A stretch of DNA of 62,876 nucleotides, taken from assembly GCA_003553505.1 (NCBI GenBank), contig PWEN01000042.1, positions 1 through 62,876 on the forward strand. Direction: 5' to 3'. The notes beneath the pieces were generated by a model. That model was not told the DNA's origin and ran no database searches. It saw only the letters and a list, made by a program, of their open reading frames with translations. The stretch's first letter is position 1. The number at the start of each line of letters is the position of its first letter. The DNA comes from Candidatus Nealsonbacteria bacterium (lineage in GTDB: Bacteria > Patescibacteriota > Minisyncoccia > Minisyncoccales > PWPS01). The translations under genes and the position numbers were made by a program. Below are positions 10,683-62,876 of this stretch, in pieces.

Positions 10683-11412
10683 AAAAAGAACGCCTTTTTG
10701 GAAGAAACCCTTTTTACAAGGAGTGTTTCTGATTTTACTTTTTATTTGTATTGTTTTTTATTTTTTCTTTCTTGAAACTTATTTCTATGTTGCTGATGTG
10801 CGTGTCAAGGGAGTAGAGTGGATATCTCAGGAAAGATTAGAGCAGATAAGAGAGGATCATGTAAAGAGAGATCTTTTCTTTACTTATTCTTATAGCACAT
10901 TTCTTGTGCCTCTTTATAAAATAGAAGGTGAGATAAAAGAGGACTTTTATAAGGTAAAAAGTGTTGATGCGCGAAGAGTATTTCCGGATATTATAGAGAT
11001 AAAGATTGAAGAAAGAGAGCCACGCGTAAACTGGTGTGAAGAGGATGTTTGTTTTAAGGTTGATAGTGAAGGAGTTGTCTTTGAAGAAGGAAAAAGAGGG
11101 GGGATAGTTTTTTACAAAGACTCCAATGCAGCTCTTGGAGAGAGAGTTGTTTCAGAAGAAAAGATACGCTTCATGGAAGAGACGGCAAAACTTCTTTCCG
11201 AGATTGATATAAAGACTGATTCTTTTTATGTTCGCTCCAAAGACAGGGTGGATGTGCTAACCGTGGAAGGGTGGAGTGCTTATTTTCTTTTTAGTGATAA
11301 TGTAGAACGACAGATAGACAACTTGAATATAATATTGGATCAGAAGATAGATGACAAGAGTGACTTGGAGTACATAGATCTGCGTTATGGGGATGCCGTT
11401 TATTTTAGATAA
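10645..11412 (+). CDS. ftsQ: Cell division protein FtsQ/DivIB
   Basis: Basic N-terminus, TM, POTRA-like segment, FPD...I.ERE P, C-terminal YIDLR. Confidence 0.85.
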   Translation: MSKKKLRKKHTVKKRTPFWKKPFLQGVFLILLFICIVFYFFFLETYFYVADVRVKGVEWISQERLEQIREDHVKRDLFFTYSYSTFLVPLYKIEGEIKEDFYKVKSVDARRVFPDIIEIKIEEREPRVNWCEEDVCFKVDSEGVVFEEGKRGGIVFYKDSNAALGERVVSEEKIRFMEETAKLLSEIDIKTDSFYVRSKDRVDVLTVEGWSAYFLFSDNVERQIDNLNIILDQKIDDKSDLEYIDLRYGDAVYFR

Positions 11413-38560: not shown

Positions 38561-38588
38561 AAAAACCGCCGATAGCTCGGCGGCTTTT
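38561..38588 (-). terminator. Intrinsic terminator
   Basis: CCGCCGA/TCGGCGG stem, T tract on minus strand. Confidence 0.8.
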
Positions 38589-38590
38589 CT

Positions 38591-38791
38591 TTATTCTCGA
38601 TTTTCCCAATCTTCCTCGTTTTCTTCCATATCTCCTTCTTCCTCCTCCCCCACTTCTTCTTCAACTTCTTCTTCTACTACTCCTTCTTCAACTTCTTCTC
38701 CTGTTTCTTCTTTTTCTTGTTCTCTTGTCATATACCAAACCGCTATTCCAACGATGACAAGAATCAATACCAAAATTATTAAAGTATCCAT
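38591..38791 (-). CDS. Small signal-anchor protein with Glu-rich tail
   Basis: MDT, TM, acidic low-complexity tail; own -10 and terminator. Confidence 0.75.
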   Translation of the reverse strand: MDTLIILVLILVIVGIAVWYMTREQEKEETGEEVEEGVVEEEVEEEVGEEEEGDMEENEEDWENRE

Positions 38792-38809: not shown

Positions 38810-38817
38810 TCGACCTT
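38810..38817 (-). promoter_or_regulatory. AAGGTCGA leader motif, copy 1
   Basis: 4 nt after TAAAAT, 18 nt before ATG. Confidence 0.6.
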
Positions 38818-38834: not shown

Positions 38835-40100
38835 TTACTCGGTGACCATGCCTTCTAAGTCATAAACATCACCTGCACCCATTATAACGATAACTTCTCC
38901 TCCTTGCAAGTCCTTTAGCAGTTTTTTGCTTGTTTCATTTAAATTTCCGGAGTAAGTGGCAAGCGATGCACTCATTGTTTCCGCACTTACTTTTTGCTTT
39001 ACTCCTTCTGATTCTCTTCCACTAACAGTGTATATGTCGGTTATAAGTATCTCTTGTACCGGAAGATCTGCTATTACTTCTCTGAATCTGTCAAACAACT
39101 TGTAAGATCTGTCATACTGATGAGGCTGAAATACGGCAACTATCTTTTTTTTAGGATATTTTTCCCTTGCTGCCTCTGTGGCAGCTTTTAGCTCTGTCGG
39201 GTGATGAGCATAGTCATTTATTATAGTTACCTTTTTCCCGTTTTTTAATGTAATTCTCTTCTCTTCAAATCTTCTCCAGCACCCTTTAAAGCTCTCCAGT
39301 GCCTTAATAGCCGTTTCTCTTTTTATTCCCATCTTAAGAGAAGCAGAGAGAGCCGCAAGTGCGTTATATATGTTATGTTTTCCGGGAACTTTTAGGGTTG
39401 GTTTTTTCATGCGATAACTGTAAAAAGTTACAGGAACTTTTTTAAAATCTTTCAATAAAGAAACTATGTTCTCATCGTCTTTGTTGGCAACAATTCCTTC
39501 TTTTACATTTTCGATGTAGCTACGGAACGTATTTTTTATGTCATCGAGGTCTTTATAGTAATCAAGATGATCCTCTTCTATGTTTGTTAGCACACATAGA
39601 TCGGGATGATAATTTAAAAATGATGCCTTGAACTCATCAGCTTCTATGAGAAGATAGTTTGAGCTTCCCTTGCGATAATTGGAATCCCCAAACTCTTTTA
39701 ACTTTGTTCCTATTATAACTGTAGGATCGAGCCCTGCTTTTATCATTACAAGAGACAACATAGATGTCGTTGTGCTCTTTCCGTGTGTTCCGGAAACAGT
39801 TATGGTGTAGTATTTTTTTGTCAGATCACCGAGTGCCTGCGGGTAACTTTGAATTTTTACACCAAGCTCTTTTGCGCGCTCCATCTCAGGATTACTTTCT
39901 TCCACTGCCGGACTATAGACAACAAGATCGACATCTTCGGGCACATGTGTGGCAGAGTGTCCCTTGAAATAGCTCATACCTTCTTCCTCTATTGTTTTTC
40001 CTGATATGTCTGAGCCGCTAACATTGTGTCCTTCTGACAAGAAATGCTTTGCAAGAGCGGAAATTCCTATCCCCCCTACTCCTATAAAGTGAATTTTCAT
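38835..40100 (-). CDS. murC: UDP-MurNAc--L-Ala ligase
   Basis: HFIGVGGIGISALA, GTHGKSTT, EADE, DHLDY, DYAHHP, FQPH. Confidence 0.96.
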   Translation of the reverse strand: MKIHFIGVGGIGISALAKHFLSEGHNVSGSDISGKTIEEEGMSYFKGHSATHVPEDVDLVVYSPAVEESNPEMERAKELGVKIQSYPQALGDLTKKYYTITVSGTHGKSTTTSMLSLVMIKAGLDPTVIIGTKLKEFGDSNYRKGSSNYLLIEADEFKASFLNYHPDLCVLTNIEEDHLDYYKDLDDIKNTFRSYIENVKEGIVANKDDENIVSLLKDFKKVPVTFYSYRMKKPTLKVPGKHNIYNALAALSASLKMGIKRETAIKALESFKGCWRRFEEKRITLKNGKKVTIINDYAHHPTELKAATEAAREKYPKKKIVAVFQPHQYDRSYKLFDRFREVIADLPVQEILITDIYTVSGRESEGVKQKVSAETMSASLATYSGNLNETSKKLLKDLQGGEVIVIMGAGDVYDLEGMVTE

Positions 40101-61290: not shown

Positions 61291-61322
61291 AAAAATAAAG
61301 GAGGGTGTTATATGCCCTCCTT
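61291..61322 (-). terminator. Intrinsic terminator
   Basis: AAGGAGGG/CCCTCCTT stem with T-rich tail on minus strand. Confidence 0.7.
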
Positions 61323-61343: not shown

Positions 61344-62132
61344 CTAGGGCTGTAGAACGCCCTCCGTTTCTCCGTTTACTGATATCTCTACACTATCAAT
61401 GCTGTCAAACTGAGTAAGAGTGTTTGTAATCTGATCTACTATTGCAGTAACCCACGCAGAACCTCCGGCAACGTCAAGCTCTTCACTGAAGTCCGCAAAA
61501 GCAACTCCATTCTCAATGTTTAGAGAGTTTAACTCTGTGCCCTCATCTATGGAGGTGGAGTACCCCTCCTCTTTCTCTTCTTCCGTAGGACCACTTAAAA
61601 GCTCTACAAGAGCTCTGTGCTCTACATCCGTCACATCTTCCAAGCTTCTTTCTACGGGAACAACATCTTCCATGCCATCTTCCACGATCATAAAGTAAAC
61701 ATTAAAAGAAGTAGTTACTTCCTCCTCTTCTTCCTCTATCATTTCGCCACTCATTTCATCAAAGACACCATCAGTTACTGCAGAAACAACCTCTCCATTC
61801 TCTACCGTAACTACGGTTGTATGAGGCGTTATCACTTGAGCCGTCATCTCTTCACTGCGATCTCCGTAACCCGCAGAATTGGACTCAAAGTCAAAAGTTA
61901 CTTCTACTACTCCTTCATCCACTTCCTCTGTTTTAGAGATCTCCAAATCTCTTCCATCATAAGTATAAGTAAGAGATTGGCTTTTCATCCACTCATCTGC
62001 GATGGCGGAAGCCTCATCAAGTGTAACCTCTCCATTCTCTTCCGGTACATCGGTATCCATTCTGGAAACAAAAACCCCTGCTACTACTACGACAAGAAGA
62101 ACAACTATAGCTATAATAATTTTTTTATCCAT
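61344..62132 (-). CDS. Signal-anchored acidic protein with C-terminal GerMN domain
   Basis: LL.GPT..E...G..TSI..GT, GVA..DFS, QI..TLTQF..I..V.I.V.G. Confidence 0.85.
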   Translation of the reverse strand: MDKKIIIAIVVLLVVVVAGVFVSRMDTDVPEENGEVTLDEASAIADEWMKSQSLTYTYDGRDLEISKTEEVDEGVVEVTFDFESNSAGYGDRSEEMTAQVITPHTTVVTVENGEVVSAVTDGVFDEMSGEMIEEEEEEVTTSFNVYFMIVEDGMEDVVPVERSLEDVTDVEHRALVELLSGPTEEEKEEGYSTSIDEGTELNSLNIENGVAFADFSEELDVAGGSAWVTAIVDQITNTLTQFDSIDSVEISVNGETEGVLQP

Positions 62133-62154
62133 AATTATTAACTTTACTTAGTAC

Positions 62155-62162
62155 TCGACCTT
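62155..62162 (-). promoter_or_regulatory. AAGGTCGA leader motif, copy 2
   Basis: 8 nt after TG-C-TAATTT, 22 nt before ATG. Confidence 0.65.
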
Positions 62163-62191
62163 TTTATTTTAAATTAGCACAAAAATTAGTA

Positions 62192-62231
62192 AAAAACAAT
62201 AAAGACCCTCCTTGCAAAGAGAGTCTTTATT
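62192..62231 (-). terminator. Intrinsic terminator
   Basis: AATAAAGAC/GTCTTTATT extended stem with T tract. Confidence 0.75.
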
Positions 62232-62240
62232 TATGAGCAA

Positions 62241-62399
62241 TTAAGGCTCTATAGGATCATCTATGGGATCATCCGCAGATGGCGGCTCTTCTATCTCCAC
62301 ATCTTCCGGAGAAGGTGTAGACATAACAAATATTAGTGCGGCAAGCCCTATCACAACTGCACCAATAACCACCGCAATAAGTATCCTTTTTATGTCCAT
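62241..62399 (-). CDS. Small signal-anchor protein with Pro/acidic tail, 52 aa, absent from the ORF track
   Basis: Manual translation MDIKRILIAVVIGAVVIGLAALIFVMSTPSPEDVEIEEPPSADDPIDDPIEP. Confidence 0.75.
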   Translation of the reverse strand: MDIKRILIAVVIGAVVIGLAALIFVMSTPSPEDVEIEEPPSADDPIDDPIEP

Positions 62400-62425
62400 G
62401 CTTTAAAAGATTGATTAAAATCTAA

Positions 62426-62433
62426 TCGACCTT
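62426..62433 (-). promoter_or_regulatory. AAGGTCGA leader motif, copy 3
   Basis: 6 nt after TG-T-TATTAT, 26 nt before ATG. Confidence 0.65.
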
Positions 62434-62463
62434 TTGTACATAATAACACAATAAGAGATAAAC

Positions 62464-62498
62464 AAAAACCCCTCTCTTTTATGCCTGAGAAGGGTTTT
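62464..62498 (-). terminator. Intrinsic terminator
   Basis: Minus strand AAAACCCTTCTC...GAGAGGGGTTTTT. Confidence 0.75.
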
Positions 62499-62507
62499 CA
62501 TGAAAAA

Positions 62508-62729
62508 CTAGTCTACCAGCTCCTCGTCTTCCTCATCCTCATCTTCATCTTCGTCTTCATCATCTTCGCCGTTTTCATCTTCGTCTTCATCATCTTCGCC
62601 GTTTTCATCCAAGACATCGTTCTCTCCATTTATAAGCTCAACATCTTCTGTCATCATGGAGTAAGCCATAACGCCTCCCACGATAACAAGAATGATGATT
62701 ATGGCGATAATTATGTTTTTTGTATCCAT
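62508..62729 (-). CDS. Small signal-anchor protein with D/E-rich tail (73 aa)
   Basis: MDTKNIIIA TM then acidic repeats; start moved to ATG 62729. Confidence 0.75.
   Translation of the reverse strand: MDTKNIIIAIIIILVIVGGVMAYSMMTEDVELINGENDVLDENGEDDEDEDENGEDDEDEDEDEDEEDEELVD
62544..62609. repeat. 30-bp tandem duplication encoding DENGEDDEDE twice
   Basis: 62551-62579 is identical to 62581-62609. Confidence 0.9.
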
Positions 62730-62755
62730 TACATTAAATTCAAGGACTTTTAATT

Positions 62756-62763
62756 TCGACCTT
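62756..62763 (-). promoter_or_regulatory. AAGGTCGA leader motif, copy 4
   Basis: 7 nt after TAAGTT, 26 nt before ATG. Confidence 0.65.
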
Positions 62764-62786
62764 TTTTCCAAACTTACTTACAGAAT

Positions 62787-62825
62787 AATAAAAACCTCCT
62801 TTTATGTAAAGAGGAGGCTTTTATT
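62787..62825 (-). terminator. Intrinsic terminator
   Basis: CCTCCT/AGGAGG stem flanked by A/T tracts. Confidence 0.75.
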
Positions 62826-62833
62826 TAGTCGCT

Positions 62834-62876
62834 TTAGTACTCCAATTCTATATCCAGATCACTGTCGTCATTTAGC
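62834..62876 (-). CDS. 3' end of a gene running off the window (…LNDDSDLDIELEY*)
   Basis: Open acidic frame ending in TAA just before a terminator. Confidence 0.5.
   Translation of the reverse strand, partial: LNDDSDLDIELEY

Follow-up and report, generated by a model that had tools for sequence, protein, structure and literature searches.

KhpA and KhpB (EloR/Jag) are described in the accessible portion of a 2026 preprint as interdependent global RNA binders of mRNAs, small RNAs (sRNAs) and tRNAs, with links to cell-envelope processes and with khp genes syntenic with ribosome-assembly and membrane-insertion genes; their RNA determinants and recognition rules are given there as undefined (bioRxiv 10.64898/2026.10.12.757534). 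How genes are regulated in the candidate phyla radiation has hardly been explored. Here, we analyzed a contig of 62,876 nt from Candidatus Nealsonbacteria bacterium (GenBank assembly GCA_003553505.1, contig PWEN01000042.1, positions 1 to 62,876; referred to here as the window), in which the 8-mer AAGGTCGA recurs in gene leaders, together with the remainder of its genome and a set of related genomes. This motif recalls the KhpA/KhpB system in that both proteins are encoded here, with khpB after rnpA-yidC, in that the genes carrying the motif are rich in envelope functions, and in that the khpA leader itself has the motif; it differs in that the literature system has no defined RNA sequence determinant and in that one relative (G008) has motif leaders although no KhpA was found in it. 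A second comparison is with CsrA/RsmA, whose sites make up the post-transcriptional regulon of a small RNA-binding protein, as is proposed for this motif, and place a short single-stranded leader motif in many unrelated mRNAs. Sites of this type also occur in the regulator's own circuit. The motif described here differs from them in being GGUCG rather than a hairpin-loop GGA, in being usually single and farther from the start codon, and in not overlapping a ribosome-binding site. Literature searches found no paper on any leader motif or regulon in these organisms, and no description of this motif was met with there or among the matches listed for the 8-mer string. We conclude that the motif is previously undescribed and neither Shine-Dalgarno (SD)-like nor random, and that it probably acts in mRNA as a docking site for a regulator of mostly small-envelope-protein genes. 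It thus offers a testable handle on post-transcriptional control in organisms not yet culturable alone.

Sequence search of the window confirmed four exact copies of AAGGTCGA, every one on the minus strand and at the positions given in the original prediction. By itself this count is not significant (4 against 1.83 expected; at least 4 in 12 of 100 shuffles). Placement was then assessed across the window's genome (G000; 810 kb in 70 contigs, 68% complete, G+C content [GC] 0.42), with genes called by a simple codon-usage open reading frame (ORF) picker, some of whose starts are wrong. The associated DNA sequencing runs carry the labels of salt-lake and soda-lake metagenomes. Leader statistics were computed on the 51 contigs with GC below 0.45 (731 genes), and contigs at or above 0.45 were excluded. 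Short contigs including C70 (GC 0.64), C47 (0.66), C54, C40 and C33 have GC of 0.5 to 0.66 and are probably bin contamination. AAGGTCG began within −48 to −22 of called starts 15 times in the sense orientation and never in antisense, where 1.0 was expected from its 73 genome-wide copies. The longer AAGGTCGA is present 29 times in the genome, with 11 or 12 sense copies 15 to 32 nt before a start codon. When the −60 to −1 regions of 796 genes were screened for k-mers without prior selection, AAAGGTCG (37 in the genome) ranked among the top strand-specific 8-mers, with 13 sense copies and 1 antisense copy. Upstream copies cluster (15 of 19 in the −40 to −21 bins), and one-mismatch variants are barely tolerated, the best being AAGGGCG (4 versus 0.91 expected) and GAGGTCG (3 versus 0.52), with at most 2 for the remainder. 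These data indicate that the motif is a genuine leader element with strong strand bias, the outcome that the original prediction had anticipated for a genome-wide count. Other strand-biased upstream words in the same genome were AGATTAA (26 sense, 6 antisense), AAGATTAA (17 to 3) and AGTTAAT (12 to 2), mostly at −25 to −6.

That the copies arose by chance, or as the remnant of a tandem gene duplication, is hardly credible. The window count alone would allow it, and three of the four window copies precede adjacent similar small genes. However, the 15-fold leader enrichment with its 15:0 strand bias holds genome-wide, the motif stands before unrelated genes, and it is kept in orthologous leaders whose flanks have diverged. 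The leaders of the four window genes are also unrelated outside the motif, so that gene duplication does not explain the repeat. Genome-wide placement and conservation in the khpA leader (see below) together refute this explanation.

To derive a consensus, 57 AAGGTCG sites with a downstream ATG-initiated ORF were collected and 21 were removed by eye (coding context or duplicate locus), leaving 36 aligned leaders, 16 from G000 and 20 from relatives. The consensus is A-AAGGTCG-A: of the 36 sites, 34 have A at −1 and 26 have it at +7, values that are partly biased because the relatives' sites were retrieved using the 9-mer. No column outside −1 to +7 rose above 0.27 bit, and no −35 or −10 partner was seen at a fixed distance. 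A bipartite promoter is therefore unlikely, and the promoter element that had been offered as one option in the original prediction is not borne out. The motif is present as a single copy, with no tandem repeat, in the aligned leaders; the sole tandem case seen was in the groES leader of relative G009 (L348), which holds two GGTCG 8 nt apart. From the end of AAGGTCG to the ATG, the distance was 17 to 45 nt (median, 27; n = 36), and 19 to 34 nt (median, 26) in G000 alone; as had been proposed, this is too far for SD pairing, and the motif is not SD-like. Predicted promoters lie 3 to 62 nt 5′ of the motif, a spacing far more variable than that to the ATG. In some genes, TTGACA-N16/17-TAnnnT ends 8 to 14 nt 5′ of the motif, and in the window the −10-like boxes returned by a consensus scan end 3 to 18 nt 5′ of it.

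The position of the motif relative to transcription starts is clearest in groES and khpA. In G000 and its congener G002, the groES leader consists of TTGACA-N17-AATAAT, an inverted repeat resembling the controlling inverted repeat of chaperone expression (CIRCE) at the predicted start, and AAGGTCG at about +28, with 34 nt (G000) and 27 nt (G002) from motif to ATG (groES leader coordinates: G000 contig C68, ~84090 to 84140; L030, ~1190 to 1240). In six khpA leaders compared at the family level, a TATAAT-like box lies ~33 to 62 nt 5′ of the motif, with a hairpin between. Several other motif copies overlap the 3′ end of a preceding gene that is read in the same direction. Because the khpA and groES copies lie ~30 to 60 nt past good predicted sigma-70 promoters, they would be transcribed there and would not form a promoter box. 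Judging from these predicted promoters, the motif is transcribed as part of the leader in khpA and groES. The 15:0 orientation and the variable promoter distance likewise suggest that the element is transcribed and holds its place relative to the start codon, not to the promoter. The original suggestion of a 5′-end RNA element thus stands in that the element is real and belongs to leaders, and falls short in that the motif is not always at the 5′ end.

The same observations bear on whether the motif acts instead at the DNA level, as an asymmetric transcription factor operator or an extracytoplasmic function (ECF)-type sigma element at or just past the start of an envelope-stress/heat-shock regulon. 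We consider this unlikely, although −10-like boxes end 3 to 14 nt 5′ of many copies and the motif genes, among them those for envelope proteins, GroES, Hsp20 and an anti-sigma-like membrane protein, look like a stress regulon. G000 also encodes two small ECF-like sigma factors beside an RpoD-like one, and one of their operons has two motif copies downstream; however, the two ECF-like sigma genes have no upstream motif and thus show no sign of autoregulation. The lack of a fixed-distance partner and the position of the khpA and groES copies, 30 to 60 nt past the promoter, argue against a DNA-level role, as does the strictly sense orientation, since most operators are palindromic or orientation-free. 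The CtsR operator half-site resembles AGGTCGA. In common with the CtsR and CIRCE-HrcA operators, the motif is found at GroES and Hsp20 genes, directly after the CIRCE-like inverted repeat in the case of groES; unlike the sites of those systems, the motif is single rather than a tandem repeat, asymmetric and sense-only. A search for ctsR (PF05848) found it in 0 of 5 relatives. HrcA was present in 4 of 5 and accounts for the CIRCE-like repeat of groES, but not for the motif. The ops element of RfaH offers another likeness, as an 8- to 12-mer read on the non-template strand: the motif here is also a stand-alone, strand-specific word in the transcribed leaders of surface-component genes without SD sequences. 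It differs in that it lies near the starts of single small genes and does not head long operons, and in that no NusG paralog was found. NusG (PF02357) was matched just once in each of 20 genomes out of 21, and not at all in the incomplete G000, which argues against an RfaH-like reader.

The copy in the khpA leader is, by comparison of orthologous loci, the most deeply conserved. Among relatives of the same order, GGTCG was found, usually as AAAGGTCG, in 17 of 18 khpA leaders. At the class level, the parser resolved 21 leaders out of 29 loci (8 were unresolved), and 19 of these 21 have GGTCG. The flanks are otherwise diverged. As background, GGTCG occurs in the −130 to −1 regions of 40 of 716 G000 genes. 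As a control, groES leaders had GGTCG in 8 of 16 cases at the order level and 2 of 23 at the class level (4 of 20 and 7 of 30 loci, respectively, were unresolved by the parser). Among outgroup genomes, the khpA leaders of G071, G072, G081 and G086 are without GGTCG, and that of G065 has it.

In 20 same-order relatives, the raw 9-mer count was no higher than that of a reversed control; judged by eye, ~20 of 31 readable 9-mer copies stood in AT-rich leaders with an ORF after them, in many cases one for a transmembrane (TM) protein or a pilin. In other families of the class, 17 of 29 copies were in leader context (one copy per genome in 29 genomes, by eye). Leader-window scans for AAGGTCG covered 400 kb per genome. 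Within the class, G030 had 3 sense copies against 0.56 expected, and G038 had 3 against 1.2 together with 4 antisense copies, giving no clear signal. In genomes of other classes, G065 had 2 sense copies (0.42 expected), and neither G071 (1; 0.78 expected) nor G086 (2; 2.7 expected) was enriched. G071 and G086 have neither leader enrichment nor GGTCG in the khpA leader, a joint absence that favors the KhpA/KhpB reading proposed below. We conclude that the motif is class-wide, with its heaviest use in this order and thinner use elsewhere in the class, such that a tight, strand-specific 9-mer, AAAGGUCGA, is common to leaders across a whole class. AAGGCAG in G030 appeared to be a sister motif (9 sense, 0 antisense) and was rejected on reading its 65 contexts, which are mostly coding.

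Leader enrichment is strand-specific, the motif stands alone, and it is conserved amid diverged flanks. To account for these observations, we propose a cis-element, A-AAGGUCG-A, that is read in RNA by a trans-acting factor and governs a small regulon, with KhpA/KhpB as candidate reader; taken as a whole, this proposal seems to us about as apt to be right as wrong. AAGGTCGA would be the core of this element, transcribed in the 5′ leader and serving as a short recognition site, and the bound factor would set the translation and/or stability of the regulon. The latter would comprise ~15 to 20 genes in G000 and fewer in more distant class members, would be enriched in small membrane-anchored or secreted proteins, and would include chaperones. 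The candidate reader would be KhpA, probably with KhpB, and would control both its own mRNA and the regulon. On the sequence evidence, action in RNA rather than DNA is somewhat favored, and the identification of KhpA/KhpB as the reader is put forward only tentatively.

KhpA is nevertheless the best candidate, since the deepest-conserved copy lies in the leader of its gene, which encodes a KH-domain RNA-binding protein. In other RNA-binding regulators, a conserved site in the regulator's own leader goes with autoregulation; by that analogy, the khpA site suggests autoregulation by KhpA/KhpB. The KhpA of G000 matches PF13083 at 74.5 bits (cut-off, 32.1) with an intact GKEG (GXXG) loop, and the PF13083 search recovered KhpA from 19 of 21 genomes at the order level and from 30 of 31 at the class level. 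A KhpB-like protein (KH plus R3H) is also available: all 5 genomes searched have R3H, on ORFs of 151 to 189 amino acids (aa), and the G000 gene is on contig C68, after rnpA-yidC. If KhpA/KhpB does read the motif, a widespread RNA-binding pair would have its first defined recognition sequence. In at least nine class-level genomes, khpA and the 16S rRNA gene share a strand, with khpA 0.7 to 2.5 kb on the 5′ side (for example, G042 C19 8258 to 10790, G047 C4 3225 to 5104, G027 C8 4373 to 9170, and G050 C24 4326 to 7546), a synteny that suggests a link between KhpA and rRNA.

In ~14 of 32 khpA leaders, the bases 3′ of GGUCG(N) can pair with a segment 9 to 60 nt upstream, which would place the motif in a loop. 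The candidate helices vary by lineage (GUAGCU/AGCUAC, AUAGCG/CGCUAU, GUUACGG/CCGUAAC, GAGAG/CUCUC, and UUGAGU/ACUCAA). Rfam searches of seven khpA loci gave only tRNAs and weak chance matches.

A number of results weigh against an RNA element read by KhpA/KhpB. The loop-closing helix was not significantly longer overall than in shuffled khpA leaders (mean of 5.9 versus 5.5 pairs), and RNAalifold returned 0 consensus pairs from a poor MAFFT alignment of 14 of the 32 leaders. Predicted accessibility of the motif gave no signal (0.54, compared to 0.53 for other leader windows). KhpA was not found in G008 (98% complete), though this genome has leader copies, nor in G020 (85% complete). Conversely, G065 has the khpA-leader element yet almost no regulon (2 copies versus 0.42 expected). 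The distance from motif to ATG ranges from 15 to 106 nt in class-level khpA leaders. A −10-like box ends only 3 to 9 nt 5′ of the four window copies and of several others, so near that a DNA-level role beside the promoter keeps some standing. A single KH domain reads ~4 nt, such that a 9-nt site would need more than one domain. Finally, the related genomes compared are not independent samples.

Since the motif is a short, purine-rich, sense-strand leader word that begins AAAGG and lies 5′ of start codons, it invites comparison with the SD sequence. It differs in spacing (17 to 45 nt, versus ~5 to 10 nt), in having no complementarity to any 16S tail read, and in its presence before ~2% of genes; as an SD element it was rejected, because spacing and complementarity both fail. 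G000 has no assembled rRNA; 16S rRNA was read in relatives (3′ ends at L001 2990 to 3010, L002, L003, L004, L008, and class-level loci L078 to L103). UCGACC and CGACCUU were in none of the 16S tails read (6 order-level, 16 class-level). All 6 order-level tails and 10 of the 16 class-level ones lack the CCUCC anti-SD itself and are AU-rich instead. This loss fits the report, as far as its accessible text goes, of anti-SD loss in a Parcubacteria subgroup with a conserved helix 26 (h26) of unknown role (Tsurumaki et al. 2022, PMC9297842). For G000 itself, anti-SD loss is not established, because a canonical SD peak is present (87 six-mer matches at −15 to −11 versus ~15 per bin) and the 16S rRNA is unassembled. 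GGAG or GAGG precedes 95 of 733 G000 genes, and the idea that this organism has lost SD use was withdrawn on account of the canonical peak in a minority of genes. An alternative SD directed at the AU-rich tail was also rejected: complementary six-mers were enriched 2.2-fold at −25 to −6, and composition controls 1.3- to 2.1-fold. The distribution of GGAG/GAGG at −16 to −5 is uneven among contigs, with 11 of 22 genes on C30 and 6 of 11 on C38 compared to 1 of 79 on C68, 1 of 50 on C56, 0 of 27 on C9, and 0 of 16 on C67; the SD-rich contigs C30 and C38 may stem from a foreign source, from a mobile element or from an organism binned in error. In the congener G002, the 16S gene is split by an insertion with a LAGLIDADG-type homing-endonuclease-like ORF (L007, ~1570 to 2560; by reading), and the contig ends short of the 16S 3′ end.

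The search of rRNA for UCGACCUU, which the original prediction had proposed, returned no 8-mer; it did yield a 6-nt complement in the loop of 16S h26. Among other rRNA complements of 7 to 8 nt, the only candidate was TCGACCT, rejected as lying in the paired 16S helix 42 and as changed to TCGATCT in G010. A search allowing wobble pairs gave only noise, and AGGTCG is not conserved within 16S or 23S rRNA. The 6-nt complement raises a further explanation, surrogate ribosome docking, in which leader GGUCGA would pair with the h26 apical loop, U(G/A)UCGACC, beside the mRNA exit. The motif would then be a standby site or enhancer for SD-less mRNAs in a lineage of which many members lost the CCUCC anti-SD, and the khpA leader would offer it in a loop for loop-loop contact. 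The hepatitis C virus (HCV) internal ribosome entry site (IRES) sets a precedent, with its domain IIId pairing with the loop of 18S expansion segment 7 (ES7; h26). Like that IRES, and like T7 epsilon, the motif would be an mRNA leader sequence complementary to an exposed rRNA loop, with h26 near the mRNA exit. The precedent differs in being eukaryotic or viral; here the complement is 6 nt, no covariation is seen, and G071 is a counterexample.

We regard pairing with h26 as improbable, more so than a DNA-level role, in spite of several points in its favor. The complement of GGUCGA to UCGACC is perfect over 6 nt, and h26 is a short hairpin whose 8-nt loop is invariant and whose stem covaries in all of the 16S rRNAs compared (6 at the order level, 19 at the class level). 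Helix 26 is surface-exposed near bS1, uS2, bS18, bS21 and the 16S 3′ end, according to the available portions of two reports (PMC10123108 and PMC11800381), so that pairing is geometrically plausible. Loss of the anti-SD alongside a conserved h26, both in PMC9297842 and in the tails read here, also agrees with docking, as do the minimum of 17 nt to the ATG, which suits a site beyond the SD chamber, and the finding, by reading, of no SD in any of the 16 G000 motif leaders. However, a 6-mer complement in a 1.5-kb rRNA is not rare (estimated at 1 to 5% for a hairpin loop), and the loop predates the motif by far and is much more widespread, with UCGACC in 19 of 23 phylum-level 16S rRNAs. G071 has the loop yet no leader enrichment. 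Loop and motif are both invariant where they co-occur, which leaves no covariation to test. The conserved AAA and the tolerated variants break the pairing rules, the wobble-keeping AAGGTTG is not enriched, and the ninth base may be A, T or G. Use in only ~2% of genes and the canonical SD peak of G000 count against docking as well. Variant h26 loops were found in G086 (CAUAGAUC) and G056 (UAUCAAUC), and also in G075 and G051; in G086 (GC 0.63), neither GGUCGA nor the complement of its own loop was enriched. The bS1 protein has four domains in all 5 genomes searched and thus does not discriminate. If the h26 pairing were true, it would show how ribosomes without an anti-SD select some messages, and would be a bacterial counterpart of the IRES-ES7 pairing.

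The motif might also be a processing or stability signal, either an endoribonuclease site or a 5′-proximal stabilizer that defines the mature 5′ end of monocistronic messages released from longer transcripts. Copies do lie at the cistron junctions between murC and a 66-aa gene, between a sigma and an anti-sigma-like gene, and between rsmH and an ftsL-like gene. In G008, the full AAGGTCGA is found in the rRNA precursor 10 to 15 nt past the 16S 3′ end, or ~6 to 13 nt past the end of the 16S match (L001 3013 to 3020), and GTCGA(C) is at the matching place in 3 of 4 other relatives (L002, L004 and L008 compared), just before a conserved spacer hairpin. This trailer match shrinks to 5 nt in those genomes, however, and cutting would be superfluous for most copies, which lie close to a predicted start as it is. 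To our knowledge, no nuclease has a 9-nt specificity. A processing role is thus quite improbable.

The genes that carry the motif in G000 include the four of the window and further TM-plus-acidic proteins, a type IV secretion system-type pilin (PF18895), a DUF4352 protein, and a signal-peptide protein 3′ of an ECF-sigma and anti-sigma-like pair. They also include Hsp20 (PF00011), GroES, KhpA (PF13083), DUF5320, a CheY-like receiver and an EF-Tu-domain-2-like protein, and the initial claim that the motif marks a set of acidic membrane-anchored proteins is too narrow. Hydrophobic N-terminal segments were found in 9 of 15 motif genes, compared to 186 of 731 genes overall (25%; odds ratio of 4.6; Fisher P = 0.0044). 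The surface-protein regulon therefore survives as an enrichment in N-terminal membrane or signal segments and not as a rule. The small envelope proteins, pilins and chaperones that the motif marks are probably central to an episymbiotic lifestyle.

In the window, copy 1 (AAAGGTCGA; minus strand, 62756 to 62764, with the 8-mer at 62756 to 62763) ends 26 nt before the ATG at 62729. The gene (62508 to 62729) encodes MDTKN..., a protein of 73 aa in which a D/E-rich tail follows the N-terminal TM segment and for which a Pfam search gave only a sub-threshold SpoIIIAH-like match. The ORF listing lengthens this gene to a TTG at 62771, a call that would engulf the motif copy. Copy 2 (AAAGGTCGA; 62426 to 62434; 8-mer, 62426 to 62433) is 26 nt from the ATG at 62399 of a 52-aa protein, MDIKR... 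(62241 to 62399), with an N-terminal TM segment, an acidic tail and no Pfam family. Copy 3 (AAAGGTCGA; 62155 to 62163; 8-mer, 62155 to 62162) is 22 nt from the ATG at 62132 of a 262-aa protein, MDKKI... (61344 to 62132), which runs from an N-terminal TM segment through an acidic linker to a C-terminal GerMN (Germane) domain (PF10646; 83.9 bits; residues 145 to 256). This protein joins a TM segment to a domain whose name derives from sporulation and germination proteins. Copy 4 (AAGGTCGA; 38810 to 38817) is preceded by C rather than A, begins 17 nt past the stop codon of a murC-like gene by reading of the sequence, and ends 18 nt before the ATG at 38791 of a 66-aa protein, MDTLI... (38591 to 38791), with an N-terminal TM segment, an E-rich tail and only sub-threshold Pfam matches. 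All of these genes are on the minus strand. After every copy the start context is ATG-GAT or ATG-GAC, and no GGAG or GAGG was found in the four leaders. The spacing of 18 to 26 nt and the Met-Asp start, N-terminal TM segment and acidic remainder of all four proteins agree with the original description.

TANNNT lies 3 to 8 nt 5′ of every window copy (4 to 8 nt in the original description), a weak observation in DNA this AT-rich. By consensus scan, promoter-like sequences on the minus strand were TTTACT-16-TAAAAT (62166 to 62193; 9 of 12 matches), whose −10 ends 3 nt before AAGGTCGA of copy 3; TTTACA-17-TATTCT (62782 to 62810), whose −10 ends 18 nt before AAGGTCGA of copy 1; and TTGCAA-17-TATAAT (38881 to 38909; 10 of 12 matches), within the 3′ end of the murC-like gene and 63 nt 5′ of copy 4. 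The last is the sole good promoter-like site 5′ of copy 4; the alternative to a promoter inside murC is co-transcription of the 66-aa gene with murC. Terminator-like hairpins with T runs lie between the window genes, consistent with the claim that each has its own. A terminator-like hairpin (62198 to 62231, minus strand) follows the 52-aa gene, and a G+C-rich palindromic hairpin (38566 to 38583) follows the 66-aa gene, with a T run on the minus strand. Further terminator-like hairpins were listed at 62814 to 62795 and 61300 to 61320; that 3′ of the 73-aa gene was seen by reading the sequence and is absent from the program's hairpin list. Rfam 15 covariance models gave nothing near a gathering score in positions 61900 to 62876.

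Two further RNA-based readings of the motif were rejected. An sRNA with an anti-motif is not supported, as every CGACCTT outside called genes in G000 falls in an opposite-strand leader, a tRNA, a terminator, a CRISPR spacer or likely uncalled coding sequence. Mimicry of tRNA was suggestive only, with GGTCG in 13 of 41 tRNAs, in six cases where the variable loop meets the T stem. On G000 contig C1 (~11060 to 11100, plus strand), AAGGTCGTAC pairs with GTACGACCTT in a perfect 10-bp hairpin 33 nt before an ORF; this could be a leader with a sequestered motif or a terminator, and the site was left out of the statistics. On contig C63 (~700 to 900), CRISPR-like direct repeats with a unit of ~30 nt flank the spacer that happens to hold CGACCTT.

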